Notes: generated by a model from the sequence alone, not told the origin. A stretch of DNA of 60,168 nt from a virus (IMGVR_UViG_3300031753_000007:1-60168), one strand, 5' to 3'; positions 20,280 through 46,353 are shown, counted from the stretch's first letter. A program made the numbers and translations.

Positions 20280-20972
20280 ATGCCGTACGCGCAAGTCACC
20301 CTCGCCCAGCTCCGTAGTTACTTCTACGAGCAGGTCGGCGGGAACACGGCCTTCTGGAGGACGGATGAAGTCGACCGTATCCTGCAAGAGAGCGTGCGCG
20401 TGTTCAACTGCCTCACTGGCTTCTGGCGGGGCCGCGTCAACTTAGGCCTCACGGTCGCAGGGCAGCACTGGTATAACGTCCCGTCAGGTCTTACCTATAT
20501 CCTGCGCGTAGAGGCAGATCAGGTACCACTCGGCTCCTCCTCGTTATGGGATCTCGACTATGGGCAGCCTGCATGGGAGAGTGAGACTGCGAGCGCAAGC
20601 GACCCAGCGCCTAAAGTGTTTGCTCCCGCGGGCGTCAACCTGTTCGCTCTATGGCCTGCGAGCTTTGCAGGCACCGAGAGCCTCGTAGTCGATGGCGTCA
20701 CACCCGCTCCCGTGCTCACGACGGTCGGCTCCATCGACCTCGGCCAGAGCGAGCTGACGACCATCCTCAACTATGCCCAGCACATCGCGCAGTTCAAGGA
20801 AGGCGGGCAGGAGTTCGAGGCCTCGCAGCTCTGGCTGCAGGACTTCCTCAAGGATGCTGGCGGACGCAACGCCATACTCATGAATAGCAGTAAGTTCCGC
20901 AATTGGATGGGGTTGACGGATCGCAAGAAGCGTCCCATCCATAAGCCTGAGCAACGCGTAGGAGCGAGGTGA
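20280..20972 (+). CDS. Head-tail adaptor/ring protein 2
   Basis: TLAQLR..FWRTDEVDRILQES..GQHWYNVP..LWP. Confidence 0.7.
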   Translation: MPYAQVTLAQLRSYFYEQVGGNTAFWRTDEVDRILQESVRVFNCLTGFWRGRVNLGLTVAGQHWYNVPSGLTYILRVEADQVPLGSSSLWDLDYGQPAWESETASASDPAPKVFAPAGVNLFALWPASFAGTESLVVDGVTPAPVLTTVGSIDLGQSELTTILNYAQHIAQFKEGGQEFEASQLWLQDFLKDAGGRNAILMNSSKFRNWMGLTDRKKRPIHKPEQRVGAR

Positions 20973-22036
20973 TGGCCGTCACCGACCAGGAAGTCGAGGC
21001 CAACGTTATCTACCGCCTGCTGGAGAATGGCAACGCAGACGCTTCCCCTGCGCCTGTGACGGCCATCACCCTGACGCTCTCTGGCGGCGCCCATACCTAC
21101 AAGTTCTTCAACGTCTGGTTCCCGATCGGTGCAGGCGTCTCCATCCTAGGCCAGAGCTATACCGAGACTGTCATCATCAACAACATCGGTGCCGCCTCGA
21201 TCCTTGTGCAGGACAACTTCGGTCACAGCCAGGTTATCCCCGCGCTGACGCAGGCGAATGTGTCTCTAGTATCCACAGGCGATGGCGTGACCTTGCTGCA
21301 GATCCTGATCGGCGCGGTGAATCCCGCTGACACGGTCCAGATGATCGCATGGAGCCCGTTCATCCAGAAGACCGGGACAGGCATCAACCTGATCCCCTTT
21401 GCGAATCAAGGCTTCCTCGGTTGGGGCCAAGATATCGGCGTGACTGCCACCATCATTCCCATCAATCCCCTGTTGACCACCATGTTCACTGTCCAACAGA
21501 TCTTCGACTCGATGAACCGGGTGCAGCAGAAATTCCTGCTCGACACAGGTATACACTGCGTGCGTACGACGATCGGTGGGGTCGTGGGCCAAGGCACCTA
21601 TGCGTTGCCTGTGGACAGTACACGTCCCCGTCGCCTCACCTGGACCGACTCGACTGACCTCAAGACACGGGCCCTCACGCAAGTCGACACTTGGGAACTT
21701 GACCAGGGCTTCCCAGACTGGCCCAGCGATCAAGCCATCCCCATCGTATGGTGGGAGACCACGCTTCCGCAGCAGCAGGTGGGCCTCGCTAAGACGCCAG
21801 CGAACAACGGCACCATTGGCCTGCTCTACGTGCAGCTCGCCGCGACGCTCGCGGGCACAGGCGTGACGCTGGTGGTCCCGGACGACTGGAGCCCTTACAT
21901 CCTGTGGGGGACGCTGGCGGAGTTACTCAGTGCTGATGGCCAGTCCTTCGACCCTCTACGCGCCCAATACTGCCGCCGTCGCTACGAGGAAGGCGTGGAA
22001 CTCGCACGCTTGGTGCTGGGAGGGAGCTGGACGTGA
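20969..22036 (+). CDS. Head-tail adaptor/ring protein 3 with inserted domain
   Basis: MNRVQQKFLLDT..GQGTYALP..VPDDWSPYILWGTLAELL. Confidence 0.7.
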   Translation: MMAVTDQEVEANVIYRLLENGNADASPAPVTAITLTLSGGAHTYKFFNVWFPIGAGVSILGQSYTETVIINNIGAASILVQDNFGHSQVIPALTQANVSLVSTGDGVTLLQILIGAVNPADTVQMIAWSPFIQKTGTGINLIPFANQGFLGWGQDIGVTATIIPINPLLTTMFTVQQIFDSMNRVQQKFLLDTGIHCVRTTIGGVVGQGTYALPVDSTRPRRLTWTDSTDLKTRALTQVDTWELDQGFPDWPSDQAIPIVWWETTLPQQQVGLAKTPANNGTIGLLYVQLAATLAGTGVTLVVPDDWSPYILWGTLAELLSADGQSFDPLRAQYCRRRYEEGVELARLVLGGSWT

Positions 22037-25000
22037 GTCAGTACAACCATGCGCTTCGTAAGTTCGCAGACACTGGCCTCCAGCTGCGCCTGCCCGTCGA
22101 CTTAGTACCAGCTACGCAATATAGCCGCTTGACTAATGCGCTCCCCGTGATCGAAGGTGAGATCCGCACGCGTGATGGGCTGACGCTGATAAAGGACGTC
22201 TTCACGCAGGCGGCTATCGCCACTCTCTCGCGTGCGAATATCGGCACCCTACTGGCTACGACAGCCACCACGATCTATCCCCACGGCTACGTTGTAGGCC
22301 AAGGCGTCACCATCGTGGTCGTAGGCAATGACCCAATGGGGGGCAACGTAATCGAGATCGGTACCTTCTTTGTCACCATTACGGCAATTCCATCGCCTAC
22401 TCAGTTTCAGTGGGCGGTAGGTCAAGGAATCCCAGGCACTTGGTCTGGTACTCAACTGATGGCTAATGTCTTCGCTCAAGCCACAGGGGCAGGGCCAGTG
22501 CAAACACTCAACGCGACTGTCATCACCAATATCTTCCGCCTGAACCAGTCGCTGCCCAGCGTCCCGAGTGACCAGATCGTGGCCATGAGTGGGCGGCTTT
22601 ACCGTTCCAACCTGAACACGACAGCTCCAACGTCTGTAAGTTTCGTCATCAACGCCTTAGGCATCTCGATCAACATCATCACGGTAACACTAACGGCACC
22701 ACCTTTCACACTTCCCCTTGGTACGCTGGTCACGCTCTCTGGCCTCACCACTAACCCTGGACTCAATGGCGCTACCTTCTTCGTCTCCCAGATTACATCT
22801 ACGACGGTTAGCGGGTTCATCTCGCAGTTACCTGTGCCCAACCTAGCGGAGACCGGGCAGATCACGGGACAGACTCTAGTACAGCCTCCGTTCGAGGAGC
22901 TGGTGCTGCCATCCATCGCAGGTGAGCCGCCATCGACGCAGAATGGCTTCTCTCCGCGTCCACTCTCGATCATCGAGTTCCGCTTCACGGACGACCCTGC
23001 ATCGTGGGCAATCATCGCGAGCCCGAGCGTGATGGCTAAGTACCGTGAGCAGGCAGGCAGCTTACCATTCCTCTTCTTCGGCTTGGGGAACTATGTGCCT
23101 ATCCTGCCCGCTACGGCTACGGCAGGTGCGGCAGGCAGCTTGAACTCGACAGGAGGAGCTAACTATGACTGGCGCTACACTTACTACGACGGCTATGTGA
23201 ACACGGAGGGTAATCCCTCGCCAGGCACGGTTGCGGGCTCGGTCGATGTCAAGAACTCGACAGCCCAGACCAATCCCGACCCTAACTTCAACGGGGGCGG
23301 CTCATTTCCGTTCACGAACTCGGCCTTCACAGGCGTCTCGAATACAGGGGGCACAGGCACTGCGACTCAGTCCGATGCGACCACGTTCCACCAGACCAGC
23401 TGTCGCTGGCGGGGCTTCGCCAATCCAGTCACCACACCCTTCTTGATCACACTAAGCGTTACGTGGCAGGTCACCATCGTCCATACGACCCCAGCTCCTG
23501 TGCAAGGGCAGCTCAACTACTCGACCGATGGAGGTGTGACCTTCCACAACTTCGCTGTCGTCTCTAACGCCTCCTCGGGGACGCTGGTCTCGACGGTGAA
23601 CCTGCCGCTCTCGACTGACTTCACGCAGGTCCAGCTGCAGGCATATGGCTTCTGCAACGTCGACGTTGCTACCCACATGACAGGCAGCTCCGTCACCATC
23701 CTCATCTCGAACATCGAGATCGACAGCAACCTGAGCCCGACGTCCGGTGCTATCCCAGTCGTAAACCAAACTGGCGTGGTCTGTGTGCAGGCACCTACAG
23801 TCAATGATGGGCGCATCACGGGCATCCGCCTCTACCGCCGCGGTGGGTCGCTGCCTGATTTCTGGCGTCTGGTCGGCACCTTCAACCTAAGTGCCCTTGT
23901 GCGTGGGGGCTGTGGCGTCGGCTTCCTCCAGATCATCGACAACGTGCCCGACAGCCAGCTCTCTACACAACCCTTCCTCCAGCTCGACAACGACATGCCC
24001 GTCTCGTCGATCTCCACGCTCAACCAGCCGCTCAACTTCGTCTGGGGGCCAGTGGGACTAGAGGCGCGCGTGCTGGGTGTAGGCGACCCCAACCGCCCTG
24101 AGTGCGTCTACTTCTCGAAGCCAGGCAACCCGGATGCGTGGCCTCCCGAGAACTTCCTCGAAGTGTCGGAGCCCGGCACGCCCATGGTCGCAGGCTGCGT
24201 CTACAACAACCAGAACTTCGCCTTCTCCCGCGAGCGCATTTATCAGCTCATCGAGGGTTACATCGCGAATGTCACCTTCACTCCCTTCGTCACGCCCTCA
24301 GCACATGGCCTCTTTACGCCGTGGGGCCTCGCGGTCGGGCCAGCGATCTACTTCGTGTCGAAGGATGGCATCTACGAGACCATCGGTGGCCAAGAACGCT
24401 CGATCGTCGAGAATGATATCAAGCCACTGTTCCCCACTTACGATACGCCGGGGCAGGACGTCGAGGGTTACGAAGCGGTTGACATGACGAAGCCTGACAA
24501 CATCCGCCTGCGCTATCACAACGATGAGCTTTACTTCACTTACACAGGCGCGACCACAGGCACTCGCCAGATGCTCGTGTATGACATCCTCAAGAAGCGG
24601 TGGCGCGCAGGCCGCTTCTCCGCTGGCATCAGTGAGGTCTACTCGCAGCCTGACATCACCAGCTCACTCCTGCTAGGGACCGATGGGGGCGCGTACTACT
24701 CGGCTGGCGGCAACTTCGATCCCTTCGAGCTGGATGTGATCGAGAATGCGATCATCCTAGCCGCGGCTACGGCTACGACGCTCACGCCGGGCAGCTACTA
24801 TGCGCGCATGAGCCGTTTCACAGCAGTGGGTGAAGTCGCACTCTCGAACGAAGTCGCAGGCCTCGCCATAGATGCAGCACATGGCATCTTGGTAGTGTTC
24901 CCCAGCGCTCCGGCAGGTACCACTAAGTGGCGTGTGTACTATGGCACGACACTCGGCCAAGAGAACCAGTATATGGAGTTCATCGAGGCCACCGTCGCGG

Positions 25001-25749
25001 GCTTTGCCAATCGCACTACGCTCATCACGGCGCCCGGCACGGCAGGCTCGGTACCTACGGTGAATGCAGACCATAACATCTCTGTGGCGCTGCGTACGGG
25101 CGCGAACGACGAGGGCATCCCCCTCAACCGCAAACAGTATGGGAATGTGATCTTCGACCTAGACCCAGGCGGTGCGACGAACGCTGCGCCTGTGACCATC
25201 ACGCCTTACATCAATGGCGAGACTGCGAACCAAGCCACGATCACTGTCACGGGTACGGGACGCCAGCAGGTGGCACTCGACTTGAACGACTACTTCGCCT
25301 TCAACACGGAGTATGAGGTCAAGTGGGAGAGGACGGATGTGGGCGGGGGCGTCATCACGGCACCTATACTCTATCAGTACGACACGTTGTGGTTCCCTGA
25401 GCCAGTTGGCGTTCTCCACTGGCAATCGCAACCTACCTCCTTTGGCTTCCCAGGATATGTGCACTGTCGCGACGCTTATATCGCCATACGCTCGACTGCC
25501 ACTGTCACACTTACTATGACCATCGACGGCGTGACGGTACAGACTTATACCATCCCCTCGACAGGAGGCCAGCGTCTCAAGCAGTACGTACCATTCGCAT
25601 CGAATAAGGGCCTGCTCTATCAGTTCGCACTGGATAGCACGGCTGAGTTCCGCATCTATGAGCCCGATCTTGAGACGCGTGCGAAGCCGTGGCTTGGCAT
25701 CTTAGGCTACAGCGTACAGCGCGTGCTCGGTGGGGAGGTCGCAACGTGA
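22033..25749 (+). CDS. Tail nozzle/stabilisation protein with inserted domains
   Basis: LTNALPVIEGEIRTRDG, VYFSKPGNPDAWP, IYFVSKDGIY, LVYDILKKRW beta-propeller patterns. Confidence 0.75.
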   Translation: MSQYNHALRKFADTGLQLRLPVDLVPATQYSRLTNALPVIEGEIRTRDGLTLIKDVFTQAAIATLSRANIGTLLATTATTIYPHGYVVGQGVTIVVVGNDPMGGNVIEIGTFFVTITAIPSPTQFQWAVGQGIPGTWSGTQLMANVFAQATGAGPVQTLNATVITNIFRLNQSLPSVPSDQIVAMSGRLYRSNLNTTAPTSVSFVINALGISINIITVTLTAPPFTLPLGTLVTLSGLTTNPGLNGATFFVSQITSTTVSGFISQLPVPNLAETGQITGQTLVQPPFEELVLPSIAGEPPSTQNGFSPRPLSIIEFRFTDDPASWAIIASPSVMAKYREQAGSLPFLFFGLGNYVPILPATATAGAAGSLNSTGGANYDWRYTYYDGYVNTEGNPSPGTVAGSVDVKNSTAQTNPDPNFNGGGSFPFTNSAFTGVSNTGGTGTATQSDATTFHQTSCRWRGFANPVTTPFLITLSVTWQVTIVHTTPAPVQGQLNYSTDGGVTFHNFAVVSNASSGTLVSTVNLPLSTDFTQVQLQAYGFCNVDVATHMTGSSVTILISNIEIDSNLSPTSGAIPVVNQTGVVCVQAPTVNDGRITGIRLYRRGGSLPDFWRLVGTFNLSALVRGGCGVGFLQIIDNVPDSQLSTQPFLQLDNDMPVSSISTLNQPLNFVWGPVGLEARVLGVGDPNRPECVYFSKPGNPDAWPPENFLEVSEPGTPMVAGCVYNNQNFAFSRERIYQLIEGYIANVTFTPFVTPSAHGLFTPWGLAVGPAIYFVSKDGIYETIGGQERSIVENDIKPLFPTYDTPGQDVEGYEAVDMTKPDNIRLRYHNDELYFTYTGATTGTRQMLVYDILKKRWRAGRFSAGISEVYSQPDITSSLLLGTDGGAYYSAGGNFDPFELDVIENAIILAAATATTLTPGSYYARMSRFTAVGEVALSNEVAGLAIDAAHGILVVFPSAPAGTTKWRVYYGTTLGQENQYMEFIEATVAGFANRTTLITAPGTAGSVPTVNADHNISVALRTGANDEGIPLNRKQYGNVIFDLDPGGATNAAPVTITPYINGETANQATITVTGTGRQQVALDLNDYFAFNTEYEVKWERTDVGGGVITAPILYQYDTLWFPEPVGVLHWQSQPTSFGFPGYVHCRDAYIAIRSTATVTLTMTIDGVTVQTYTIPSTGGQRLKQYVPFASNKGLLYQFALDSTAEFRIYEPDLETRAKPWLGILGYSVQRVLGGEVAT

Positions 25750-26168
25750 CCTTCAAGATGCAACCCGACGTGATCGTGCGCGTGGACGATCCTCAGCACG
25801 TGGCGCAGAACACGAACAAGAACATGCAGCGCATCTTCACCGCCCACCAGACGCTCGATGGTACGGCGATCAAGGCGCCGACATTGGGCGGTGGATTCGC
25901 GGTGAACTCGGGCTCGCTGACGGTCACAGGCTCGAAGACGGGCATCGCTTCCGGCCTGACGGCGGTCACGCAGGTGGTGGCGTCGATCGACAATGGCGCG
26001 ACGGCCACGAACTTCTGGGTGACGGCTAGGGTGACGCCTACGAATGCGGCACAGGTGGACGTGTTCGTCTGGCAGCCGACCGCGGCCGGGAACAATACGC
26101 CGATCGCAGCGACGACGCCAGTGACGGTCAGGTGGTGGTGTTCTGGGACCTCGACCGCGTCGCAATAG
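25746..26168 (+). CDS. Small tail protein
   Basis: GTGA overlap, GGAGGT SD. Confidence 0.6.
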   Translation: MTFKMQPDVIVRVDDPQHVAQNTNKNMQRIFTAHQTLDGTAIKAPTLGGGFAVNSGSLTVTGSKTGIASGLTAVTQVVASIDNGATATNFWVTARVTPTNAAQVDVFVWQPTAAGNNTPIAATTPVTVRWWCSGTSTASQ

Positions 26169-26198
26169 TCTTGCCAGCGAAGGTGGATAGGAGCCAGA

Positions 26199-26861
26199 AT
26201 GGCGCGAGGTGACGACATGACGCTGCTGGAGAGGTTGGCTGGGACCCCACCGCCGTCGCCCCCCAGCGCTGTGCCTGCTGAGCCGCCTGCGGCCGTGGTG
26301 CCGACGCACGGCAACATCCGCCTCGTCCCCTACAACGCCATCTACGACCCTCAGGCTGACGCCTTCCTCGCCTATATGTGGCAGCGCCTGCAGCGCGACG
26401 ACGTGGTCGACTACTACTTCCCGGGCCAGAAGGAGACGGGTTTCGCCACCTTCGTGCGCATGATGAGTGGGGATGCGCAAGTGGCGCTCGTGATCACTGA
26501 CGCGACCAACGGCCAGTGGAAAGACACAGTGGCAGGCTTCGTCACGTGGACGCCCTCGCATATGGGCGCAAGCGAGGTGATCATCGCTGGCTTCATCTTC
26601 TTCCGTGAGTTCTGGGACCACCGCACAACGGACAACACAGGCGCCGCGGCCTTCGACTACTGGTTCACCCAGACCAAGGCGCAGGTGGTGCTGGGCGTGT
26701 GCCCGGCGTTGCATATGACCGCCTTGCGCTACAACAAGCGTATCGGCCTGCACGAGGTGGGACGCATCCCACAGGCGCATCTCTACCACGGCGAGCCTTG
26801 TGATGCAGTGCTCGTGGCGATCACACGGAACGAGTGGCTCGCTCGTAAGGGAGGCAACTAG
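26199..26861 (+). CDS. GNAT-fold protein of the tail/ejection module
   Basis: ALRYNKRIGLHEVGRIP GNAT motif; same position as P22 gp14/T7 gp13. Confidence 0.75.
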   Translation: MARGDDMTLLERLAGTPPPSPPSAVPAEPPAAVVPTHGNIRLVPYNAIYDPQADAFLAYMWQRLQRDDVVDYYFPGQKETGFATFVRMMSGDAQVALVITDATNGQWKDTVAGFVTWTPSHMGASEVIIAGFIFFREFWDHRTTDNTGAAAFDYWFTQTKAQVVLGVCPALHMTALRYNKRIGLHEVGRIPQAHLYHGEPCDAVLVAITRNEWLARKGGN

Positions 26862-27479
26862 ATGCCGCTTGCTGCCGCAGCAGGACCGGCGATTGGCAAG
26901 GGGCTGGCGGGAGCTGGCCTCGGTGCTTCGGGCGCGAGTGGCAAGAAGGCCTCGAACGCCGCCAATAAGCTCGCGCAGCAGCAGCTGCAGCTTCAGCAGG
27001 GACAGTTCGGCCTAGCCAAGCAGCAGATGGGCCTGGGCAATCAGGCGCTTGGTGGCGCCTCGAACTACTGGAGCGCTCTGCTCTCTGGGGACCGCAACGC
27101 AGCTCAGAACGCTGTGGGCCCTTACGCTTCGATGATCGGCTCTACGGCGGAAGGTGGCCGTCAGGCGATCCAGGCACTCACGCCGCGCGGAGGCGAGCAG
27201 AACCTCGCACTGGCCCAGAACTACAATCAGGCGCAGAATCAGATCGCACGCCTGTACGCTGGGATGCAGCCACTTGCGGCGCAGGGCCTCGGGCAAATTG
27301 GTGGCCAGTACCTCGGGTCTGCCGCTGGCTTCAATCCGAATGCGAACATCGGTGCTGGTGCAGGCATCTATGGGCAGGAGATGCAGAGCGCTGGCCAAGC
27401 GGGTGCGGGCTTTGGCAGCCTGCTCTTCAACCAGTTGAACAAGGCGCGTAACGGTGGTGGGGGCGGAGGCAAACAGTAA
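26862..27479 (+). CDS. Putative ejection (internal virion) protein 1
   Basis: Ala/Gly/Gln-rich, AANKLAQQQLQLQQ; position after GNAT. Confidence 0.7.
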   Translation: MPLAAAAGPAIGKGLAGAGLGASGASGKKASNAANKLAQQQLQLQQGQFGLAKQQMGLGNQALGGASNYWSALLSGDRNAAQNAVGPYASMIGSTAEGGRQAIQALTPRGGEQNLALAQNYNQAQNQIARLYAGMQPLAAQGLGQIGGQYLGSAAGFNPNANIGAGAGIYGQEMQSAGQAGAGFGSLLFNQLNKARNGGGGGGKQ

Positions 27480-29225
27480 ATGGGCAGCGGTCTAGCCAAC
27501 GTGCTCGGTGGGGCAGCAGAGGGCTTCGAGCAAGCCCGCCAACAGGACCTCACGCGCCAGTTCGCCGATGAACAGAACCGCCGCAACCTCGCCGCCGACT
27601 TCCTGGGCAAGATCGCCTTCGACGAGAATGCGCCGCCCGAGATGCGCAACGCCGCCCTCCAGAGCCACCTCCAGCTAGCCCAGCAGGACTGGAAGCGGCC
27701 GATGGACCTGAAGAAGATCTTCGATCCGGTCTTCCAGGCGCATACGCAGGCACAAGCGGCTAAGACAGCGGCGGCACAGGCTCCCGCGCCTCCGGTCACG
27801 CAGACGTTCACTCCACCACCTCCGCTACCTACGCCCCCATCCCCGCCCTCCGCAGCTGCCGGCGCTCCTTCCGGCCAGATGGGCCCACCGTCTGTCCAGC
27901 AGGCGGCAGCTGCCCTTCCTTTGCGGCGTCCTCCAGCGCCTCCACAGGCTGGACAGGTACAGTTCACGCCTCCACCTGGGCCTACGCCTCCTCCTGTGCC
28001 ACCAGAGAGCATGCTGGGATCGCCGGAGCGCACGACGCAGATTGCGGCGGCACGCACCGCAGCGTTGACTGGGGCCGCGGCCGGCGCAGAGATGAAGACG
28101 CCCATCTACACGCGCAACCCTGATGGGACCTTCACCGTGGTGGGCATGAGCGGGGCTGGGGCTCAGATGCAGGGTGGCATCCCCAACGCCATCTCTCCCT
28201 ACATGATGCAGGGACGCGGGTTGAGGCAGATCACCTATCTCGACCCGACGACGGGGCAGCCTCAGCCAGGCGTCCACAACCTGTTCACAGGCGAAGTGCT
28301 CGACCAGCAGGGCCACGTGGTGCCAGGCGCGGTACCCTTTGAGTCGTCACTCTTGCCCTCCGTGTCAGGCGAGAGCATGGCGCCATCAGGAGCGATCACG
28401 CGCACGCGAACGCCTATACTGCGGCCACCGGGAGGTGCTCCAACTCCAGCAGGGGGCGGAGGACGTGCTCCCACAGCCCCAGCGGCACCGGGCGGTACTG
28501 GCGGTGCAGCCAAAGGAGCTGCTACGAAGCTCCCAGTCACGACCGCTGACTTCCAGTCGATCAAGGACCCCGTCACGCGCGAGGCCCTCGATTGGGCCAC
28601 CCTCGGCCAGAAGCCCACAGGCGGCATCATGGCAGAGCGCCAGGTCGAGACGCGCATGAATCAGCTAGGGCTCGCGAAGGCCCTGCCGGTGCCTCCTGCG
28701 CTCCAACGCACTATCCAGGAGCAGTTCGTCGCCCGCAACTCCGCCATCGGCCTGATCGATGACATCATGGCCAACAAGAGCACCTTCAGCAGCTTGCTCG
28801 GCGGCGGCAAGATCGCCATCGCCTCACGTCCAGATGGCAGCGGCTTCGTGCAGCGCCTCATGCCCCTGAGCGACCAAGAGGCCCGTGTCGTCGGTGACTT
28901 TGAGCAGCTGGTCGAGCATGCGAACCTCTTGCGTGGGCCACTGGGGGCGACAGGTTTTCGCGGGGCACAGGCGTGGGGTGCGTTGCAGGCTCAGCGTGGC
29001 AATCCAGCAGGTGACCCACGTATCACGACGCAGGTGATGAGTGGCATGCGCGACAGGCTGGTGGGACTGAACTCTGCCGATAAGCTAGTGCTCACGGGAG
29101 GTGGGATGAGCGGCGCTGCAGCCGATCCGTACGAGGGCCACACCGCCACCAATCCTGCTAATAAGCACCAGATCAAGTGGACGCAGGGGCACTGGGTGGA
29201 CGCTAAGACGGGAGAGCCGATCTAA
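27480..29225 (+). CDS. Putative ejection protein 2
   Basis: GLANVLGGAAEGFEQARQQ start, Pro-rich linkers, C-terminal ATNPAN..W motif. Confidence 0.65.
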   Translation: MGSGLANVLGGAAEGFEQARQQDLTRQFADEQNRRNLAADFLGKIAFDENAPPEMRNAALQSHLQLAQQDWKRPMDLKKIFDPVFQAHTQAQAAKTAAAQAPAPPVTQTFTPPPPLPTPPSPPSAAAGAPSGQMGPPSVQQAAAALPLRRPPAPPQAGQVQFTPPPGPTPPPVPPESMLGSPERTTQIAAARTAALTGAAAGAEMKTPIYTRNPDGTFTVVGMSGAGAQMQGGIPNAISPYMMQGRGLRQITYLDPTTGQPQPGVHNLFTGEVLDQQGHVVPGAVPFESSLLPSVSGESMAPSGAITRTRTPILRPPGGAPTPAGGGGRAPTAPAAPGGTGGAAKGAATKLPVTTADFQSIKDPVTREALDWATLGQKPTGGIMAERQVETRMNQLGLAKALPVPPALQRTIQEQFVARNSAIGLIDDIMANKSTFSSLLGGGKIAIASRPDGSGFVQRLMPLSDQEARVVGDFEQLVEHANLLRGPLGATGFRGAQAWGALQAQRGNPAGDPRITTQVMSGMRDRLVGLNSADKLVLTGGGMSGAAADPYEGHTATNPANKHQIKWTQGHWVDAKTGEPI

Positions 29226-31021
29226 TGGCGGCACCTCCACAGCTTCCGAGCGGATACCAGCTTGACCCCCCAGCTGGCGCACCTAAGCCTCCTGCTGGCT
29301 ATCAGTTTGATGGCACGCAGCCGAATGGCGACACCTACCAAGGCGGCTTCCTGCACCACTTGGGCTCGTCACTGTGGAATGCGGGTGTGGGCCTCGTCAA
29401 TGCGGTCACCAATCCTGCAGGTGGACTCGCTGGGTCACTCGTGCAGAGTGTCTACAACCAGACTGGCGGATGGGGACGGCCGAGCCAAGCGGCTCAAGAA
29501 TGGCAACAGCGCACAGCGGAGGGGCGTTCCCTGCCGTACAGGATCATGGCTCCGCTAGCTGAGACCGTGACGCCATTGAATGTGCAGGCGCAGGAGGAAG
29601 CGGCGCGTCGTGGAGATGTAGGTGGTGTAGCTGGCGAGGCTGTCGGAGCTGGCACGATCGCGGCCGCTCCACTTGCGGTGGAGGGTGCAGCTCGCGCTGC
29701 AAATCGTGTCATCCCCTCGACCACGCGCGCAGGCGCAGGTCTCCAAGCGCTTGAGACCCGCTACGCCGACCATCCTGTCGAGCCCAACCAGTTCGCCGCT
29801 GCGACCGCCAAGATCCAGCAGGAACTCGATACCGTGGGTGCCAAGGTGCCCGACCGCATCCAGCACGTGATGGACCGCGTGCAACAGGCCGACGCTGAGG
29901 CGCGCGCAGGCGTCCAAGGTGGCCAGGGCCCGCTCACCTTCAAGGAAGCCCGCACCATCCTCAAGCAGTTCAACGATCAGATCGACTTCCGCAATCCGAA
30001 CCCGACCGACCGCCTCTACCAGCGGGCGGCAGGGGCGCTCGACCAGGACATCACGACCAGCGTGGCGCAGCCCTCGCAGGTGGCGCCTAAAGGCTTCCTG
30101 CCAGACTACCTGCGCATGGCGAATGAGTACCGGCGTGGGAAGCAGATCATCCGGGCCGGAGAGGCTGCGGGGCCGTTCATCGGTGGCGGCGTGGGAGCTT
30201 ACTTGGGGCGTGGCGCAGGTGGAGCTGTGGCGGCGGAAGCCGCTGGAGGTGGAGCGCTTCTCGGTCGTGTCGTAGGGAAGCCTACAGTCGGGGCTATGAC
30301 GCGTGCTCTGATCGAGCGCCAGGGTGGGGCACCTAACATCTCACTTCCGCCAGAAGCACCTGCACCACCTGTACCAGCTGCAGCTGCCCCAGCCGCGACA
30401 CCACCGCCAGCGCCCCCTGCGGAGGTCTCAGGCGCACCTGGAGGCGTCGAGCGCCGCACCGACATCGCTGCTCGCCAGCACTTTGCTCAGCTCTCACCCC
30501 AGGAGCAATATGAGGCTGCCTTTACTAACCACGTGACTGGGTTGCCCAACGCTCGCGCCTTCGACTGGATACGCCAACGGGAACCAGCAGCGCCTTCGTA
30601 TGGCTTCTCCGACGTCGCTGGCCTGAAGTGGCTGAACGACACGCACGGAATGGAGGCGGGGAATGCGCTACTCCAAGCCAAAGCACGTGCTCTCCAAGAA
30701 GCGGGCATTTCCTCTTTTCATACGGGTGGGGATGAGTTTACCCATGTATCGCCGGATCCGGTTAATCTTAACAATCGGCTGGCGGCTGCGAACCAGAACC
30801 TCCGCAACGCCGTGATCGAGTTCAGGGACGCGAAGACTGGGCAGCTCCAGCACTACACTGGCGCTGAGTTCCGCTACGGTGTCGGGTCCTCACCCGAGCA
30901 AGCACAGGCTGGCATGATGGCGCGCAAGGCGGCAGGGAAGGCGACGCGTGGTACGCAGGGCATGCTACGGCGCGTTCCGCCACCTGCGCCACCGCCCGGT
31001 CCTGTCGAGGCGACGCCATGA
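29225..31021 (+). CDS. Putative ejection protein 3 with C-terminal GGDEF domain
   Basis: LPSGYQLD/PPAGYQFD N-terminal repeats; VTGLPNARAF, SDVAGLKWLNDTHG, HTGGDEF (30725-30739). Confidence 0.85.
   Translation: MAAPPQLPSGYQLDPPAGAPKPPAGYQFDGTQPNGDTYQGGFLHHLGSSLWNAGVGLVNAVTNPAGGLAGSLVQSVYNQTGGWGRPSQAAQEWQQRTAEGRSLPYRIMAPLAETVTPLNVQAQEEAARRGDVGGVAGEAVGAGTIAAAPLAVEGAARAANRVIPSTTRAGAGLQALETRYADHPVEPNQFAAATAKIQQELDTVGAKVPDRIQHVMDRVQQADAEARAGVQGGQGPLTFKEARTILKQFNDQIDFRNPNPTDRLYQRAAGALDQDITTSVAQPSQVAPKGFLPDYLRMANEYRRGKQIIRAGEAAGPFIGGGVGAYLGRGAGGAVAAEAAGGGALLGRVVGKPTVGAMTRALIERQGGAPNISLPPEAPAPPVPAAAAPAATPPPAPPAEVSGAPGGVERRTDIAARQHFAQLSPQEQYEAAFTNHVTGLPNARAFDWIRQREPAAPSYGFSDVAGLKWLNDTHGMEAGNALLQAKARALQEAGISSFHTGGDEFTHVSPDPVNLNNRLAAANQNLRNAVIEFRDAKTGQLQHYTGAEFRYGVGSSPEQAQAGMMARKAAGKATRGTQGMLRRVPPPAPPPGPVEATP
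30663..30815 (+). CDS. Candidate overprinted basic peptide (+1 frame) inside the GGDEF domain
   Basis: GGAGG-6 nt-ATG; local drop in GC3 of the host frame. Confidence 0.35.
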   Translation: MRYSKPKHVLSKKRAFPLFIRVGMSLPMYRRIRLILTIGWRLRTRTSATP

Positions 31022-31290
31022 TCAAGCACATCAGCGACCTCAAGGATAAGCCACGGCGTGCTGGAACGTGGCGCGTGCTCTCGCATGAGGAGGCGGCTCG
31101 CGTGCGTGCCCAGGACACAGCCGAGCGCAATGCCCATCGCTTGCCACCGGAGGCCTACACCAAGTTCCTCCTGCAGGCGAAGCACGGTGAGATTGCACCA
31201 GGCGAGGCAGACCGCCGCGTCGCCAAGTACGGTGGCAGTACTAAAGTGCAGCCCATCAGGCCATTCCCACGACCCCCGCGGGGCACCTAA
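31018..31290 (+). CDS. Hypothetical basic protein
   Basis: ATGA overlap with the GGDEF gene. Confidence 0.7.
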   Translation: MIKHISDLKDKPRRAGTWRVLSHEEAARVRAQDTAERNAHRLPPEAYTKFLLQAKHGEIAPGEADRRVAKYGGSTKVQPIRPFPRPPRGT

Positions 31291-31291
31291 G

Positions 31292-31546
31292 ATGGGCACG
31301 ACGCCCCTCGCCACAGAGCGCCGCTGGCATGGCACACGCTGTGCTCAGGTGGTCGACCTGCTGCTCCAGGGCCTCTCGAACAAGGAGATCGCGGGCGACA
31401 TGGGCATCGCTGAGCGCACGGTCAAGGCCTACGTGCACCGCCTGATCAACGAGTACAACGTGACGGGCGGTGTCAAACGCGTGAAGCTGGCTGTTCTGCT
31501 CTACCGTGAGCAGCTGGCCAGTGAAGCGAACAAGGAGACTGAATGA
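31292..31546 (+). CDS. Stand-alone LuxR/GerE-type HTH regulator
   Basis: LLLQGLSNKEIAGDMGIAERTVKAYVHRL. Confidence 0.9.
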   Translation: MGTTPLATERRWHGTRCAQVVDLLLQGLSNKEIAGDMGIAERTVKAYVHRLINEYNVTGGVKRVKLAVLLYREQLASEANKETE

Positions 31547-31770
31547 ACACGATCCTCAACTCGATCCACACGCATCCGACGTATTGGGCCCTTGGAGCCT
31601 ACTACCTGTTCTCGAACGCAGTCAGCGCCCTACCAACGCCTGCACAGGGGAACAATGGCGCCTACCGTTGGCTATTCGACTTCTCCCATGGCCTCGCGGG
31701 CAACATCAGCCGCATCGTAGCCACGCGTTATCCACAAGCCGCCACAGGCTCTGTGGCCACTAAGCCGTAG
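31543..31770 (+). CDS. Holin-like small membrane protein
   Basis: AVSALPTP..YRWLFDFSHGLAGN; lysis-cassette position. Confidence 0.55.
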   Translation: MNTILNSIHTHPTYWALGAYYLFSNAVSALPTPAQGNNGAYRWLFDFSHGLAGNISRIVATRYPQAATGSVATKP

Positions 31771-31777
31771 ATACGCG

Positions 31778-32041
31778 ATGCGCTCCCTCTCCATGGCGCA
31801 GTGGAAGATGGGATGGGGATTCCTGCTTCTAGCTGGCATCTTGGGCCTTTGCGCCAGGATCGCTTTGGGCCACGTAGAGCAGCAGACCTCCTACGGTCTG
31901 ACAGAGATCATTGGCATTCTGGCAGTGCTCGCGGGGCAATGGGCCAACTGGGCCTTTGGGGAAAGCCGTAGCTCCTCGAAGACTGAGCCCACCGCGTCAT
32001 TAGAATCAAGCAGTTCCGCAAGTCGTAACGAGCCGCAATAG
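31778..32041 (+). CDS. Two-TM holin-like protein
   Basis: Two hydrophobic helices, WAFGES. Confidence 0.55.
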   Translation: MRSLSMAQWKMGWGFLLLAGILGLCARIALGHVEQQTSYGLTEIIGILAVLAGQWANWAFGESRSSSKTEPTASLESSSSASRNEPQ

Positions 32042-32082
32042 GCCGTTACGCCTTCGGAACACTGTGCTAGTAACCTAAAGAT

Positions 32083-32604
32083 GTGGCCCCTAAGGACGCG
32101 AGGTTCTCAGATTGGTTCGAGTGGATCCTGAGCATCGTGGACATGACGCCTGAGAACCGACGCTTCATCGACACTTGCTCGGTAGCGGCGCGCATGGTGG
32201 CGCACCCCTATCCGGATGCAGTCGCCTGCGAGGCTGCGCTAGAGTCGAACTATGGGCATTCGCATGCAATGCTCGTGGGCAACAATCCGCTGAGCCTCAA
32301 GACCTTCGAGCATCCCACCTACGGCCAAGTGTCGTTGCCCGCCAAGGAGTTCCTGCACCCAGATTGGATCCCAAACGATGGCTTTCTCATCCACTATCCG
32401 TCGCTAGCGGATTGCTTCGCCGATCGCCTGGCGACGCTCGTCCGCCTCAAGCAGATTTACCCCACTTACAAGGAAGCGTTGGAGGCCGACACTGTCGATG
32501 GCTACATCACAGCGGTCTCTAAGACGTGGCTGCACGACTTAGACAGGAGCCTCAAGGTGATGATCATCTATCGTAGGTACATCACCGATCACTTCAACAC
32601 GTAG
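32083..32604 (+). CDS. GH73/FlgJ-like glucosaminidase
   Basis: ACEAALESNYG, NNPLSLK, YPSLADCFAD; true start may be ATG 32143. Confidence 0.75.
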   Translation: MAPKDARFSDWFEWILSIVDMTPENRRFIDTCSVAARMVAHPYPDAVACEAALESNYGHSHAMLVGNNPLSLKTFEHPTYGQVSLPAKEFLHPDWIPNDGFLIHYPSLADCFADRLATLVRLKQIYPTYKEALEADTVDGYITAVSKTWLHDLDRSLKVMIIYRRYITDHFNT

Positions 32605-32614
32605 GAGGCACGCG

Positions 32615-33118
32615 ATGGGCCTTGACAGCTTTTCCGAAAGTCGCCTGAGCGAAGTGCACCCGATGCTGGCAGAGAAGATACGGGCGATGGCGGATGCGCT
32701 CGAAGCCCAGGGCGTCTCGATCCGTGTGACCCAAGGCCTACGTACGTGGGACGAGCAGGCAGCGCTCTACGCCAAGGGCCGCACTGCTCCGGGGCCTAAG
32801 GTCACCAATGCTTCAGCTGGGACGAGCTGGCACAACTACGGGCTTGCTGTGGATGTCGTGCCCATGACGCCGCTAGGGCCAGACTGGAACACGTCGCATC
32901 CGGTGTGGCAGGCGATCATTACAACGGGCGAGGCACAAGGGCTCGTGGCCGGCGCGAAGTGGCGCAGCTTCCCTGACTACCCACATTTCCAGCTCACGGG
33001 GACACTACCCGTCTCACCTGATGAAGGCGTACGTGAGGCTTATGAGCAAGGTGGGGTTACGGGTGTGTGGACGGCTGCGGGGCTCGCATTGCCTAGCGAT
33101 GGCACGGTCTCTGCCTAA
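32615..33118 (+). CDS. M15-family (L-Ala-D-Glu) peptidase endolysin
   Basis: RTWDEQAALYAKGRT, SWHNYGLAVD, DYPHFQ. Confidence 0.93.
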   Translation: MGLDSFSESRLSEVHPMLAEKIRAMADALEAQGVSIRVTQGLRTWDEQAALYAKGRTAPGPKVTNASAGTSWHNYGLAVDVVPMTPLGPDWNTSHPVWQAIITTGEAQGLVAGAKWRSFPDYPHFQLTGTLPVSPDEGVREAYEQGGVTGVWTAAGLALPSDGTVSA

Positions 33119-33477
33119 GGCGCAGGGGGCGCCACATGCGACATCTCTGTCGTAGTGAAGCGCAGGATGAACCCTAGCGAATGCGTGAAGCGATCGGCGC
33201 TGAAGCCAATCCATGGTGCGACGGCGTAGCTGACAGGCGGGATCAGGTGGCCCGCAGCCTCACCCAGGAAGTGGGGCCCCACAATCCAGACCGTCCAGCA
33301 CAGCCCATCGACGAACAAGCGCCACCCCAGCTCTCGATTGTTGTACGCCCACCACACCCAGAAGCTTGAGATCGAGTTCGAGGTCGCTGCGATCGAGCCG
33401 CGCGCCTGGACGAGGATCTGCAGCACCACACCCAAGTGGAACAGGAGCCACACGTACAGGGCTTGCTCGGAGTTCAC
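33115..33477 (-). CDS. Multi-pass membrane protein
   Basis: About three hydrophobic segments. Confidence 0.65.
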   Translation of the reverse strand: MNSEQALYVWLLFHLGVVLQILVQARGSIAATSNSISSFWVWWAYNNRELGWRLFVDGLCWTVWIVGPHFLGEAAGHLIPPVSYAVAPWIGFSADRFTHSLGFILRFTTTEMSHVAPPAP

Positions 33478-33551
33478 ATCCCCCAGCCTAGTGGGCTCAG
33501 GTGAATGACCGCTAGATTACTGATGAGCCATGAGCGCATACTCGACCTGCG

Positions 33552-33755
33552 ATGCTCACTCCGCAAGAGGCCCACGACCTGCAGGACCTGCTCCAGCTGC
33601 TCATCTACTACGTTGACCTGTATGACCTTGGCGACCTGGGCCACATGACCGGCGAGAGGCGCAAGGAGCTGGCCATGTCCGCTATCCGTCAGCTTTCGGC
33701 CAAGATCGTGTCGCTCACGCCACCTTCCATCACGCCTTGGCAGAGCACGCGATAA
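33552..33755 (+). CDS. Hypothetical helical protein
   Basis: GC3-rich codons. Confidence 0.55.
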   Translation: MLTPQEAHDLQDLLQLLIYYVDLYDLGDLGHMTGERRKELAMSAIRQLSAKIVSLTPPSITPWQSTR

Positions 33756-33848
33756 CCTCCCCTTGAGGCGTCCCTACAGCATCAACCCTGTTCACTTCTG
33801 CTCAGACTTGCGATATGACGTGGGATAGCTTGGGGCAGGAGGCGACAG

Positions 33849-34016
33849 ATGCTATGTGAATTTGCCTATGAGATGCCCAGCCTAGAGGAGTGGGCAGAGC
33901 GGCGGGACAACGCTGAAAAGGAGAGGCCTCGCCAAGATGGGATGCCAGCAAAAGTGGGCACCCAACCCGATGGAGAGGCCCCAACTCACGTGCCTAGTGT
34001 GCCCAGGCGTGCGTGA
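33849..34016 (+). CDS. Hypothetical 55-aa protein
   Basis: AGGAGG SD; MLCEFAYEMPSLEEWAERRD. Confidence 0.45.
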   Translation: MLCEFAYEMPSLEEWAERRDNAEKERPRQDGMPAKVGTQPDGEAPTHVPSVPRRA

Positions 34017-34025
34017 ACTCTTACG

Positions 34026-34211
34026 CTACCACTGCGGCTTGACGCGCAGGGACTCGAGCTGTGTGTATGTGACATCGGTGCCCTGGACCTTCTGCAAGGC
34101 GGCGATCGCAGCCTCTATGCCGGCGATGACTTCGGTGGCTACCTCGCTCACCTTCGCTTGTTCGAGGACTGTACCCAACAGACTCAGTACGAGCGCTATG
34201 ACGTTGATCAT
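34026..34211 (-). CDS. Small protein with hydrophobic N-terminus
   Basis: ATGA overlap. Confidence 0.65.
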   Translation of the reverse strand: MINVIALVLSLLGTVLEQAKVSEVATEVIAGIEAAIAALQKVQGTDVTYTQLESLRVKPQW

Positions 34212-34579
34212 GGCTTAATCACCCCCTTCATGTCTGTGATCGCCTGATTCGCGTTGGCGATCGCACTGGTCAGCGCAGCCTGCGCACTCTTCACGGGCGA
34301 GCACTTGGCGTTCGCATCCGGGGGCTGCAGCGAGATCGCCCAAGAGCAGTAAGTCTCGACGCTCGTGATGAGCAGGGCCTGTGCGCTGATGCCGCGGTTG
34401 ATCGTCTGGCAGATGGTCTGCGTGGGGTTGGGAACGCAGGACGGCGCGTACTGGCTCTGGGCGGTGACCAGCAGCCCACTGAGGGCCGCGGCCGTGTCAC
34501 GGGCCTGCTTCTCGATAGGTGAGCAGGCCGTGAGCACGAGCAGCGATGCCACGATGAAGCTGATGAGCGTGATGCGCAT
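34208..34579 (-). CDS. Lipoprotein (possible spanin)
   Basis: AGGAGG SD; lipobox LTAC. Confidence 0.7.
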   Translation of the reverse strand: MRITLISFIVASLLVLTACSPIEKQARDTAAALSGLLVTAQSQYAPSCVPNPTQTICQTINRGISAQALLITSVETYCSWAISLQPPDANAKCSPVKSAQAALTSAIANANQAITDMKGVIKP

Positions 34580-34586
34580 GTGCCTC

Positions 34587-35108
34587 CTAGACTGGTGGAT
34601 TGGTGACGATCTGGAGCGAGGTGAGCACGGAGGTGGCTTGGACGTCGAACTTCAGGGATGCGCTTAAGCCGGCGACGCTTACGCTGAGCACTTCGGTGCC
34701 TGCGGCCACGCCGGTCACATCCTCGCTGCCTAGCGTCGGGTCAGGAGCGATGGTTGCAAGCGTCGGGTCCGCCACGCTCCACGAGGGTGGGTTGGCAGTG
34801 AAGTCGATGGGGAACGGCTGACCGTGCTGGTCGAGGCCTTGGACGCTCGCGATGGTGGTCTTGCCGATCTCAAGGGGCATGAGGATGTCCTCCTGGATGA
34901 TGATGTCGATGTGGTCGAGCCGCGGGGCCACAATACCATAGATAGCCCGCACGTTGGCAAGGACTTCCTCGACTATGACCGAGAGCGTATGACAGCGCAG
35001 GGCAAGCTGGCCAAGCGCGTGCTCGCAGTCGGCGTCGAGCTGGCTGAGCTTGGCATCGATGGTGTGGGACAAGGCGAGGAGTTGCTCGTGGAGGGCTTCA
35101 TTCTGCAT
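34587..35108 (-). CDS. Coiled-coil plus Ig-like domain protein
   Basis: DQHGQPF..PSWSVADPTLATI..VTGVAAGTEVLSVS. Confidence 0.6.
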   Translation of the reverse strand: MQNEALHEQLLALSHTIDAKLSQLDADCEHALGQLALRCHTLSVIVEEVLANVRAIYGIVAPRLDHIDIIIQEDILMPLEIGKTTIASVQGLDQHGQPFPIDFTANPPSWSVADPTLATIAPDPTLGSEDVTGVAAGTEVLSVSVAGLSASLKFDVQATSVLTSLQIVTNPPV

Positions 35109-35109
35109 A

Positions 35110-42971: not shown

Positions 42972-44652
42972 GCCATCTCCCCATCGAACTCACGCTTGCA
43001 CTTAGTGCACCGGAGGGTAACGATGAACACGCCATCGCCATCTGCGTTCGAGTGGGCAAAGATGAAGCGCACCACTTGGAGGTGCAGGCGTCCATGCAAG
43101 CACTTAGGCCACTTACTCTGCTTGGTCATGCTTCCCCTCCAGTTCGGCAATGCGGGAGCGCAGCACCGCAACTTCAGCCTGCAAGGATTCCACTTGTTTT
43201 CGCAGTTCGGTGACGGCTGACCCGAAGCTATAAAGCTGTCCTTCTACTGAGCCAACGCGTAACTCATAGCGTTTGCCAGCCTCGGAATCGCTACCGATGT
43301 AAGTTGTGCTCATTGCGCAACCTCTCATTCTCTTCCTTCAGCGCGGCTATCTCGTGGCGGAGCGGCTCACTCCAAACGATCTCGTACCACTTGGCGATGC
43401 ACAAAGCGTACTGTTCTGCGAACTCGATTGAGGCCTTCCAGTTCGGGTGCCAGATAATCGGCTTCGTTCCCTGTAGGCGATTGATGATGAAATATTGCTC
43501 AGCAGGCATTGGCTTGGCTGCGGACACGGGCTGCTCGGGAGTGGCGGCACTAATCACATCCTTCTCACAAACTGGTGTACATCCCGCCTTCGCACACCAC
43601 GCATCTTTCTCGTGGACTTCGTTAAAGTTTGGATATGCCGAATTTTCGGGCAACTTCATCCACTGCTTCTTGGCAGACTCCGGCGCTAGCGGCTGCGGAG
43701 TGGAGTGCCCCGTACACCAGAAACAAGTTCCTTCAGCGGACAATTCAGCACCGCAGGTCGGACACCGCGTCTCCTGGTTCACTGGGCACGCTCCCACCAA
43801 TTTCTGATATCTCTTGGTATCCACAGAACGCGAATGAACCAGTACCAAAGCCCGTGCTTAAAGTTAGAGTCTGCATAAGCGTCTGCTGGAGTCCACTCAG
43901 GTCCGCCCTTGTAAAGTCTGGGAATGAAGTTCACTCGCCCTCCGCAATTTCCTTCTTGGCTAGTTCTTTTGCCGCTTCCCATGTGTAGACGTAGTGCCGC
44001 CAGAAGTCATCGACCTGATTCAGGTGCGGATATTTCTTCAAGCAGGCGCGACAGTACTTCTCGTACATGGGGACCATTTGCTCACAGTTGATACAAACTG
44101 AATAGCTCACTCTCCCTCCTTTGCTTGCAGCGCCAGCAGACGCTCAACTCGCTCTTTGAACTTTAGCTGTTCCTGATAGATGCCGTAATCTTCTGCACAG
44201 GGTAGATAGTTGATGGCAAATTGCAGCGCCTCCACCAGTTCCCGATCTCCAGCACGCTTCCCGGCTGCGTAGGCGGCTTGCCAGACGATCCATTGCTCTT
44301 CAATCCGATCATCGACGTAGCGTCCGCCATAAGGATGCTTTGGCCTAACTTGCCATTCCAAGGGAACAATCTGCCACTTCTCGAACTCCGCCCGCTCCTC
44401 ACTCATCCCTTTTTCCCTTCAACAGTTCGATAATCTTGTCGAGCCTAGAGCAGACTAGCCATCCTAGGAAGATCAGCAGCGTGCCCAGACATCCCAACTC
44501 CCAGCGGACTTCTGCGTCGATCACTTCTCCTCCATGGCATCGAGCTGCGAGCGATACGTGATGCGCTCGCCACAATAGCACCCTGCGCAGTAGACGCGTG
44601 CCGCCCAGATCGCACGGCAGAAGCGGCGGTCGCGACGCTCGGTGAGGCTCAT
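42968..44652 (-). other. Run of small, often Cys-rich accessory ORFs (e.g. 43113-43313, 43291-43782, 43779-43934, 43931-44110, 44107-44406, 44399-44524, 44521-44652)
   Basis: Mostly overlapping start/stop junctions; visibly lower GC than flanks. Confidence 0.6.
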
Positions 44653-46349: not shown

Positions 46350-46353
46350 GCGC

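Follow-up and report, generated by a model that had tools for sequence, protein, structure and literature searches.

The genome IMGVR_UViG_3300031753_000007, a whole IMG/VR record of 60,168 bp that is ~95% complete (the window), belongs to an uncultured podovirus. It encodes a 598-residue protein, the target of this analysis, which ends in a genuine, compact GGDEF domain of ~180 residues. The domain is joined by a flexible linker to a helical body from a phage-only protein family, and the gene is located where podoviruses encode their ejection proteins. Tentatively, and as a whole chain of events slightly less than probable, the target is regarded as a late-made, capsid-packed conduit protein by which a tethered, feedback-free cyclase would reach the cytoplasm at infection, where it would be activated by proximity in the oligomeric conduit. 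The features of the target are the following.

29225..31021, plus strand: target gene with ATG start, 598 aa; body at the N-terminus, then Pro/Ala linker and GGDEF module; homologues over the full length are 33-48% identical
29225..30364, plus strand: N-terminal body, all-alpha, ~370 residues; matches positions 1-401 of the body-family profile, E 3.8e-163
29618..29689, plus strand: Gly/Ala-rich, moderately hydrophobic segment, residues 132-155; hydropathy maximum 1.37 (19-residue windows starting at 132-135)
30164..30274, plus strand: glycine-zipper-like segment, residues 314-350; G320 and G324 invariant in nine module-bearing proteins
30335..30436, plus strand: Pro/Ala-rich flexible linker, residues 371-404; predicted local distance difference test (pLDDT) below 50 over residues 382-416
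30437..30535, plus strand: conserved helix before the cyclase, residues 405-437; E409, R410, R411, R417 and P425 invariant
30536..30970, plus strand: compact GGDEF domain, residues 438-582; identified by Pfam, PDB profile and Foldseek

The original prediction had read a GGDEF domain from short motifs in an open reading frame (ORF) at 29225-31021. This ORF is confirmed on the plus strand with 598 aa, and all motifs quoted are in place: TGLPNARAF at residues 438-446, D463, K468, N471-D472, G475, GGDEF at 501-505 (nt 30725-30739), and ARKAAGK at 566-572. The Pro/Ala linker was likewise found before the domain, at residues ~371-404. The HMMER search with PF00990 that had been proposed gave a divided result, 21.8 bits (E 1.7e-4) for the whole protein, below the cut-off of 23.8, and 24.5 bits in a six-frame search, above it. 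Profile and structure comparisons were clear. A profile of the target and seven homologues matched 21 PDB entries at E<=0.01, the best being 4urs at 4.2e-8, and all 21 are GGDEF proteins by name or Foldseek description. With the target sequence alone, 19 of 20 matches at E<=1 were GGDEF proteins; the remaining one, a pseudopilin at E 0.17, was taken as a chance hit. In the AlphaFold2 (AF2) model pLDDT is 73-93 over residues 455-590. All 50 PDB matches listed by Foldseek for this model are GGDEF cyclases; the probability is 1.00 for 49 of them and 0.98 for the other, and template-modelling (TM) scores to the target reach 0.64. Identity and fold of the domain are therefore as had been proposed.

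Further attributes of the domain were also borne out. It had been called compact, and it is ~10-15 residues shorter than 4urs from T. maritima, most of the first helix and the RxxD-bearing loop being missing. A sensor domain had been said to be absent; the only other Pfam match in the target is to CHASE3 (16.5 bits versus a cut-off of 28) and was rejected as an artefact of the helical bundle. No RxxD inhibitory site (I-site), which in GGDEF proteins typically but not always stands five residues ahead of the motif, is present either, since the corresponding loop of 4urs is deleted and no R..D occurs between residues 448 and 500; in the target this pattern starts only at residues 128, 179, 410, and 444. 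The stretch preceding the cyclase is modelled as two helices (residues 410-421 and 425-432). It is common to the stand-alone GGDEF proteins of YuA-type phages and to the polyvalent protein P0156 described below, and is part of the mobile module.

Residues required for catalysis are conserved throughout. The GGDEF motif, D463, K468, N471, K568, and R575 are invariant in the nine full-length module-bearing proteins, that is the window protein and eight relatives, the fragment P0008 retains the same catalytic residues, and those of the target align with their counterparts in 4urs. The position reading the Watson-Crick face of the base, the specificity site, is variable. Asp is present in seven of ten family modules and Asn in three, those of the window (Asn480), P0002, and P0019; Asn is also found in P0156. 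According to Hallberg et al. 2019 (PMC6456294), Asp at this position enforces GTP specificity, Ser or Thr leads to hybrid cyclic GMP-AMP (cGAMP), and relaxed purine specificity requires GGDEF, not GGEEF; no mention of Asn was found in the available part of that paper. The motif is GGDEF in all ten family modules. The ancestral product was probably cyclic di-GMP (c-di-GMP), because Asp is present in seven of the ten modules and in both stand-alone phage proteins. From these residues c-di-GMP is expected as the product of the family, and the Asn-type enzyme of the window is possibly relaxed in its purine specificity.

These observations bear on a different product. An active and delivered module could synthesise 3'3'-cGAMP, cyclic di-AMP, or another purine cyclic dinucleotide, which would jam, decoy or prematurely trigger cyclic-nucleotide immunity rather than alter motility or biofilm formation. 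This explanation overlaps with the delivered-cyclase reading. Asn480 in place of Asp, shared with P0002, P0019, and P0156, argues for it, as does the reported control of purine specificity by the residue at this site, the relaxed type requiring the GGDEF motif seen in ten out of ten modules. Interference with host nucleotide responses has in addition been proposed by Iyer et al. (PMC5512222). The prevalence of Asp in the family and in both stand-alone proteins speaks against it, an effect of Asn was not found in the part of PMC6456294 at hand, and a host defence context is missing. A product other than c-di-GMP is rated as rather unlikely.

The carrier of the module was studied by a body-only profile search among 1.84 billion representatives at E<=1e-3. 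It revealed a family of 270 representatives, 74 of them at E<=1e-10, which is confined to phages; most full-length members are 400-480 aa long. The best 150 of the 270 were listed. Using a local hidden Markov model of the family's own GGDEF columns, the module was detected in six of these 150, and it is further present in P0003, P0005, and the fragment P0008, known from earlier searches. Since the module is missing in most relatives, it must be dispensable for the core role of the protein.

Comparison of body and module trees gave an intricate picture. The body tree contained 36 rows, the nine module-bearing proteins and 27 near-full-length proteins devoid of the module, the other listed matches being left out. 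Presence of GGDEF on this tree needs eight changes, at least six of which are forced by well-supported branches, and it is clustered no better than a shuffled label (325 of 500 shuffles were as low). P0001 and P0003 both have cargo-less sisters at 100/100 support. In the module tree, all ten fused modules group together, separated from the stand-alone YuA-type proteins with 100/100 support. The window module pairs with that of P0002 (83/94), but the window body groups with P0001 and P0021. Mean pairwise identity is 56% for the module versus 34% for the body, and among module-bearing proteins the bodies are only 24-55% identical. Judged from these sequence comparisons, constraint acts more strongly on the module than on the carrier. 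The scattered label on the body tree, the single module clade, and the higher conservation of the module indicate that this module type arose once and was afterwards lost or exchanged laterally several times, in other words that it is an optional cassette.

A survey of homologues for exchanged C-terminal effectors had been suggested. It established the optional nature of the cassette, and no other recognisable enzyme was found in its slot by Pfam searches with ten long members. Unrecognised inserts occupy the GGDEF slot in P0021, P0023, P0024, P0025, P0004, P0048, and P0149. Among the ten long members, seven matched no Pfam family, two (P0048 and P0149) matched KTSC, and one, P0025, showed a weak SHOCT-like match (E 0.0047). 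P0025 also harbors a motif of the GE-GPE type, a kind present in tape-measure proteins. P0004 has an additional C-terminal extension of ~140 aa beyond its GGDEF module.

With the family defined, it can be asked if the module is an enzyme at all. It could instead bind nucleotides or mediate oligomerisation, for example to sense GTP on arrival or to hold subunits together, and produce no second messenger. It is well known that degenerate GGDEF domains can act in binding, and the GGDEF domain of FimX is among the Foldseek matches of the target. The truncated first helix would fit such a role, and so would the tail that follows the slot in cargo-less relatives, which in P0025 is weakly SHOCT-like. 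However, non-catalytic GGDEF domains typically lose the motif, whereas in this family every residue for catalysis is invariant in spite of the low identity of the bodies. A non-catalytic module is considered improbable. A prediction of a two-copy complex of residues 405-598, based on a nine-row alignment, reached a score of 0.12 versus a mark of 0.42 and is neutral on self-association.

The family also has a characteristic C-terminal end. Cargo-less relatives terminate in a conserved motif of ~45 residues, which is not present in the target and is carried by the next ORF of the window.

31018..31290, plus strand: 90-aa ORF with the C-terminal tail of the family; positions 393-436 of the body-family profile match 31135-31263, E 3.6e-11

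The ATG of this ORF overlaps the TGA of the target gene (ATGA junction). Stand-alone homologues of the whole 90-aa protein were detected, P0101 (56% identity from end to end), P0128, and P0123, and for this reason the split into two genes is a conserved design rather than the result of a sequencing error. By its profile match, the tail on the 90-aa ORF represents the ancestral C-terminal tail of the family. Because the 90-aa ORF follows, the block does not end with the target, contrary to what had been assumed.

Directly after this ORF, a LuxR/GerE-type helix-turn-helix (HTH) gene is located at 31292-31546 on the plus strand (Pfam GerE, E 9e-11). Its start is most likely the ATG at 31292, giving 84 aa, and not 31058 (162-aa ORF). 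The gene is absent from the same place in the metagenome locus L005, which harbors a cargo-less relative of the target.

The position of the gene bears on ejection. Between 26199 and 33118, all plus-strand genes directly adjoin or overlap one another, forming one tightly packed operon. The order from 26199 is a GNAT-like protein of 220 aa, proteins of 205 and 581 aa, the target, and the 90-aa ORF, followed by the small LuxR-type HTH protein, two small hydrophobic proteins, and two cell-wall hydrolases. Genes upstream of the target are listed below.

20280..22036, plus strand: tandem paralogous SU10-type adaptors of 230 aa (20280-20972) and 355 aa (20969-22036); PF24175
22033..25749, plus strand: tail/virion structural protein of 1238 aa; 34% identity over residues 664-1236 to Tunturi_1 gp31, annotated 'virion structural protein'
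26199..26861, plus strand: GNAT-like acetyltransferase, 220 aa, opening the block; phrog_4470 at E 3.7e-7, Pfam Acetyltransf_3 weak
26862..27479, plus strand: Gly/Ala/Gln-rich protein, 205 aa (20% Gly); its counterpart in L005 is a 212-aa ORF
27480..29225, plus strand: Ala/Gly/Pro-rich protein, 581 aa, presumed member of the ejection block; its counterpart in L005 is a 569-aa ORF

Thus, adaptors and a large tail protein are followed by four Ala/Gly/Pro/Gln-rich proteins and then by lysis genes. This is the position at which P22, T7, and SU10 encode ejection proteins, and the original assignment of the gene to an ejection-protein block agrees with its place in the late structural operon of a podovirus. 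In P22, gp14, gp7, gp20, and gp16 come after the adaptor and needle genes, an order mirrored by the block of the window. In SU10, five consecutive genes encode the ejection proteins gp20-24, which are lost from emptied particles (PMC9509320). The block resembles the podoviral ejection proteins (P22 gp7/gp20/gp16, SU10 gp20-24, T7 gp14-16) in gene position, number and sizes and in low-complexity, helical composition. Packaging of the target in the virion and its ejection are by this analogy somewhat more probable than not.

Properties of the body are consistent with this analogy. The AF2 model of the body has a mean pLDDT of 75.7, rising above 92 in a helical bundle at residues 160-320. Residues 132-155, including G137 which is nearly invariant among 72 body-family members, are a candidate membrane-active helix, and the glycine-zipper region is modelled as a long helical hairpin (residues 292-330 and 334-363). 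One enzymatic domain only was found in the target by Pfam and PHROG searches, and no enzyme is recognisable in the fold of the body. The 72 members matched the unannotated phrog_3292 eight times, tape-measure PHROGs five times, and a 'DNA transfer protein' PHROG once. In the disordered N-terminus (residues 1-32; 29225-29320) a short peptide motif occurs twice in tandem, PSGYQLD and PAGYQFD. Duplicates are found at the same place in P0001-P0005, spelled differently. The tandem peptide may be an incorporation or docking signal.

Sequence-based evidence connecting the block to proven ejection proteins was also sought. With the 72-member body alignment as query, hhalign gave probabilities below 1% against P22 gp16 and gp20, and no match to PF16928 was detected in the window. 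Language-model neighbours had placed the 581-aa protein with the P22 gp20 family and the target with the gp16 family, in P22 gene order; these candidates were not confirmed by hhalign or PF16928. For the 581-aa protein, no Pfam or PHROG family was found. Foldseek searches with the body model returned nothing from the PDB (best E 0.34) and, from BFVD, uncharacterised phage proteins only (best E 7.5e-3); two of the 50 listed weak BFVD matches contain a lytic transglycosylase. The block itself has no peptidoglycan-hydrolase domain detectable by Pfam.

The synteny of the block was examined in two other genomes. Locus L005 is syntenic, with a large protein, GNAT, ~210 aa, ~570 aa, and the target homologue in succession. 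In the phage Tunturi_1, gp31-gp37 show the same order by position. BLASTP comparisons of the window GNAT, the 581-aa protein, and the target with their positional counterparts in Tunturi_1 yielded no similarity, and a profile search over the whole Tunturi_1 record, the target's counterpart gp37 included, had no match either. Counterparts in Tunturi_1 are labelled 'lytic tail protein' or 'hypothetical', which is not supported by Pfam. A GNAT gene at the start of the block is common to the window, L005 (6820-7656), and Tunturi_1 (gp34).

According to one explanation, the block from 26199 to 31290 would specify factors for assembly or accessories on the outside of the tail, and the target would never enter the host. 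The missing sequence, profile and fold similarity to the ejection proteins of P22, SU10, and T7, the lack of a lytic transglycosylase or other lytic domain in the block, and the unsupported annotations in Tunturi_1 could be understood in this way. Yet the low-complexity, helical, Gly-zipper composition is unlike that of fibres or spikes, the gene comes behind those for adaptor and tail protein as in P22 and SU10, and some members of the body family match tape-measure and DNA-transfer PHROGs. There is little probability that the target stays outside the host.

If the target is ejected, the following sequence of events can be proposed. By gene order, the protein is made late, from the structural operon. 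It would be packed in the capsid with the other block products, by analogy to P22 gp7/20/16, T7 gp14-16, and SU10 gp20-24. At infection, it would exit through the tail, and its body would become part of a conduit across the envelope, the Gly-rich helices being placed in the membrane. The GGDEF modules of neighbouring subunits would then meet in the cytoplasm and, as the conserved catalytic residues suggest, condense two purine NTPs to a cyclic dinucleotide, likely c-di-GMP in Asp-type relatives, while the Asn-type enzyme of the window may be relaxed. Lacking the RxxD site, which is absent from the sequence, the enzyme should escape product inhibition, a consequence expected from established GGDEF enzymology. 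Finally, and speculatively, an early burst might rewire motility, matrix, and surface receptors or perturb nucleotide-based immunity. Cyclase turnover is assumed to be 0.1-1 per second, in order of magnitude. As a back-of-envelope estimate, ~10 injected copies would then produce tens to hundreds of molecules each minute. For a cell volume of a femtolitre this corresponds to ~0.1 to 1 micromolar per minute, which is within the signalling range.

Late expression is equally compatible with an enzyme that acts in the producing cell. The cyclase, packaged or not, would work late in infection, and its delivery would have no signalling role; c-di-GMP might be raised before lysis for matrix formation or aggregation around the burst, or for a receptor shutdown against superinfection. 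Expression from a late structural-lysis operon should let the protein accumulate in the producing cell far beyond the copy number that fits into a virion. Moreover, the related proteins of YuA and Vojvodinavirus phages are non-structural and encoded in the early/replication region; their link to hyper-biofilm lysogens is a correlation only (PMC8471281). On the other hand, a cytoplasmic enzyme needs no fusion by a flexible tether to a structural-block protein, a giant polyvalent protein, of a class predicted to be injected, contains this type of module too, and the fusion has been kept in nine diverged proteins (window and eight relatives). Action in the producing cell is unlikely, but it deserves more weight than the other alternatives to the delivered-cyclase reading.

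Several findings weigh against delivery of an active cyclase by the target. The module is missing from 144 of the 150 listed relatives. The negative results for the body with hhalign, PF16928, PDB, and BFVD, the missing similarity to Tunturi_1 gp37, and the missing peptidoglycan hydrolase in the block belong here, too, and so does the lack of any detectable body homologue in cultured phages, because of which virion proteomics does not exist for the family. A folded cyclase would have to unfold for passage through the tail channel, and late expression fits the producing cell as well. As to the enzyme itself, the whole-protein Pfam score for GGDEF is under the gathering cut-off, the first helix of the domain is shortened, and Asn480 replaces the GTP-specifying Asp, which makes the product uncertain.

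GGDEF domains on phage proteins have been noticed before. Iyer et al. 2017 (PMC5512222) reported them in polyvalent proteins of phages and prophages, predicted to be injected, as 'not very widespread' and proposed interference with host nucleotide responses as their role. The concept of a virion-delivered GGDEF domain is thus not new, and ranking the target as the best candidate for a new system was an overstatement. An experimental test of GGDEF domains on predicted injected phage proteins was not found in the literature. The single relative from a search among longer proteins (one of 8000 scored), P0156, is a protein of 2,658 aa with a GGDEF score of 28.2 bits and an LPD39 score of 26.7 bits, just under the cut-off of 27. 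Its module is 34% identical to that of the window over 175 aa (E 3e-22), and like that module it follows the conserved helix, has a short first helix, and carries Asn as the specificity residue. Like polyvalent proteins, the target is a phage protein with a built-in GGDEF domain and a gene among those for virion components, and it shares the module type with P0156. Polyvalent proteins, however, combine several disparate activities in a giant polypeptide, whereas the target has one enzymatic domain on a carrier of ~400 aa, and no LPD domain was detected in it by Pfam. This carrier is a distinct family with an optional module and with its ancestral tail split off as a gene.

The stand-alone GGDEF proteins of Yuavirus/Vojvodinavirus siphophages, such as gp39 of Bordetella phage FP1 and gp80 of Pseudomonas phage Aergia, possess the same helix and short GGDEF domain in ~155 aa and are 35-38% identical to the target over residues 406-509. 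They differ in being specified by separate small genes of the early/replication region, in the motif AGDEF, in Asp at the specificity site of both, and in the absence of a hairpin of ~20 residues between the last strands; in the module tree they form a separate clade (100/100). These proteins are annotated as diguanylate cyclases and discussed in relation to biofilm, again with the hyper-biofilm lysogen link as a correlation only (PMC8471281). Bacterial diguanylate cyclases (T. maritima 4urs/4urg, PleD 1w25, WspR 3i5c, DosC 4zve) have the same fold and active-site residues. In contrast to them, the target lacks sensor or receiver and RxxD, is ~10-15 residues shorter, contains Asn for Asp, and is fused to a phage structural-block protein. 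T4 Alt, an ADP-ribosyltransferase, and the N4 virion RNA polymerase are packed in the head and injected before phage gene expression (PMC5512222); their chemistry is different and their delivery has been demonstrated experimentally, whereas that of the target is predicted only.

From these comparisons, the minimal architecture, with just two domains and a carrier family not described before, appears to be new. The on/off behaviour of the cassette, the split tail ORF, and one module type linking three contexts are new as well. Phages may even own a mobile, feedback-free cassette of helix and mini-GGDEF for varied vehicles, that is the ~400-aa ejection-block carrier, giant polyvalent proteins, and a stand-alone early gene. 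Its Asn-types, that of the window among them, would make a purine cyclic dinucleotide other than c-di-GMP at DNA entry, which would decoy or jam host cyclic-nucleotide immunity. This proposal is a long shot; if true, it would amount to a virion-borne counter-defence working before any phage gene expression.

The genome surrounding the target was also inspected. The window encodes portal and major head proteins, a terminase-like protein, a fibre-like protein, large structural proteins, and a lysis cassette, and no genes for tail tube, sheath, or tape measure were found in it. The two SU10-type adaptors match PF24175 (SU10_adaptor) with 27.3 and 42.7 bits at a cut-off of 27; Tunturi_1 has one such match (gp30) versus two in the window. 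The nearest cultured relatives are the Tunturiibacter phages Tunturi_1 and Tunturi_2, with a capsid identity of 28%, and the N-terminus of a 1552-aa protein is homologous to Tunturi_1 gp12. Tunturi 1-3 are podoviruses by electron microscopy (PMC11924767); mass spectrometry is not mentioned in that paper. The classification of the window as a podovirus relies on the two SU10_adaptor proteins and on the homology of the capsid, the 1552-aa, and the 1238-aa proteins to Tunturi_1. A search for related loci found no relative in IMG/VR or in genome contigs, and hence no prophage copies and no host assignment. EAL and PilZ domains as well as tRNA genes were not detected in the window, and a promoter/terminator scan of 20000-35500 gave results at chance level.

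Two other genes attracted attention. At 35110-37809 on the minus strand, a family A DNA polymerase (PolA) with an N-terminal domain of the uracil-DNA-glycosylase (UDG) superfamily is encoded. Its orthologue in L005 (12206-15616, minus strand) is matched weakly in Pfam by intein splicing and LAGLIDADG domains, with scores under the threshold. A 660-aa protein (44649-46631, minus strand) contains a C-terminal GT4 glycosyltransferase domain; one of its matches, to 'GT4 in conflict systems', is weak and at E 5e-4 does not reach the cut-off.

The value of the finding is limited by the idea being in print since 2017 and by the need of a cultured relative for work on virions and infection. The two-domain version is, on the other hand, experimentally simpler than giant polyvalent proteins, and the module, of ~190 residues, can be expressed by itself. 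Natural Asp/Asn variants offer a ready comparison of specificity, and sister pairs with and without the cassette (P0001/P0021; P0003/P0023) represent matched controls. If the target is injected and active, the phage would alter a global bacterial second messenger before expressing any of its genes, a form of host takeover that has so far been documented only for other chemistries, those of T4 Alt and the N4 RNA polymerase.

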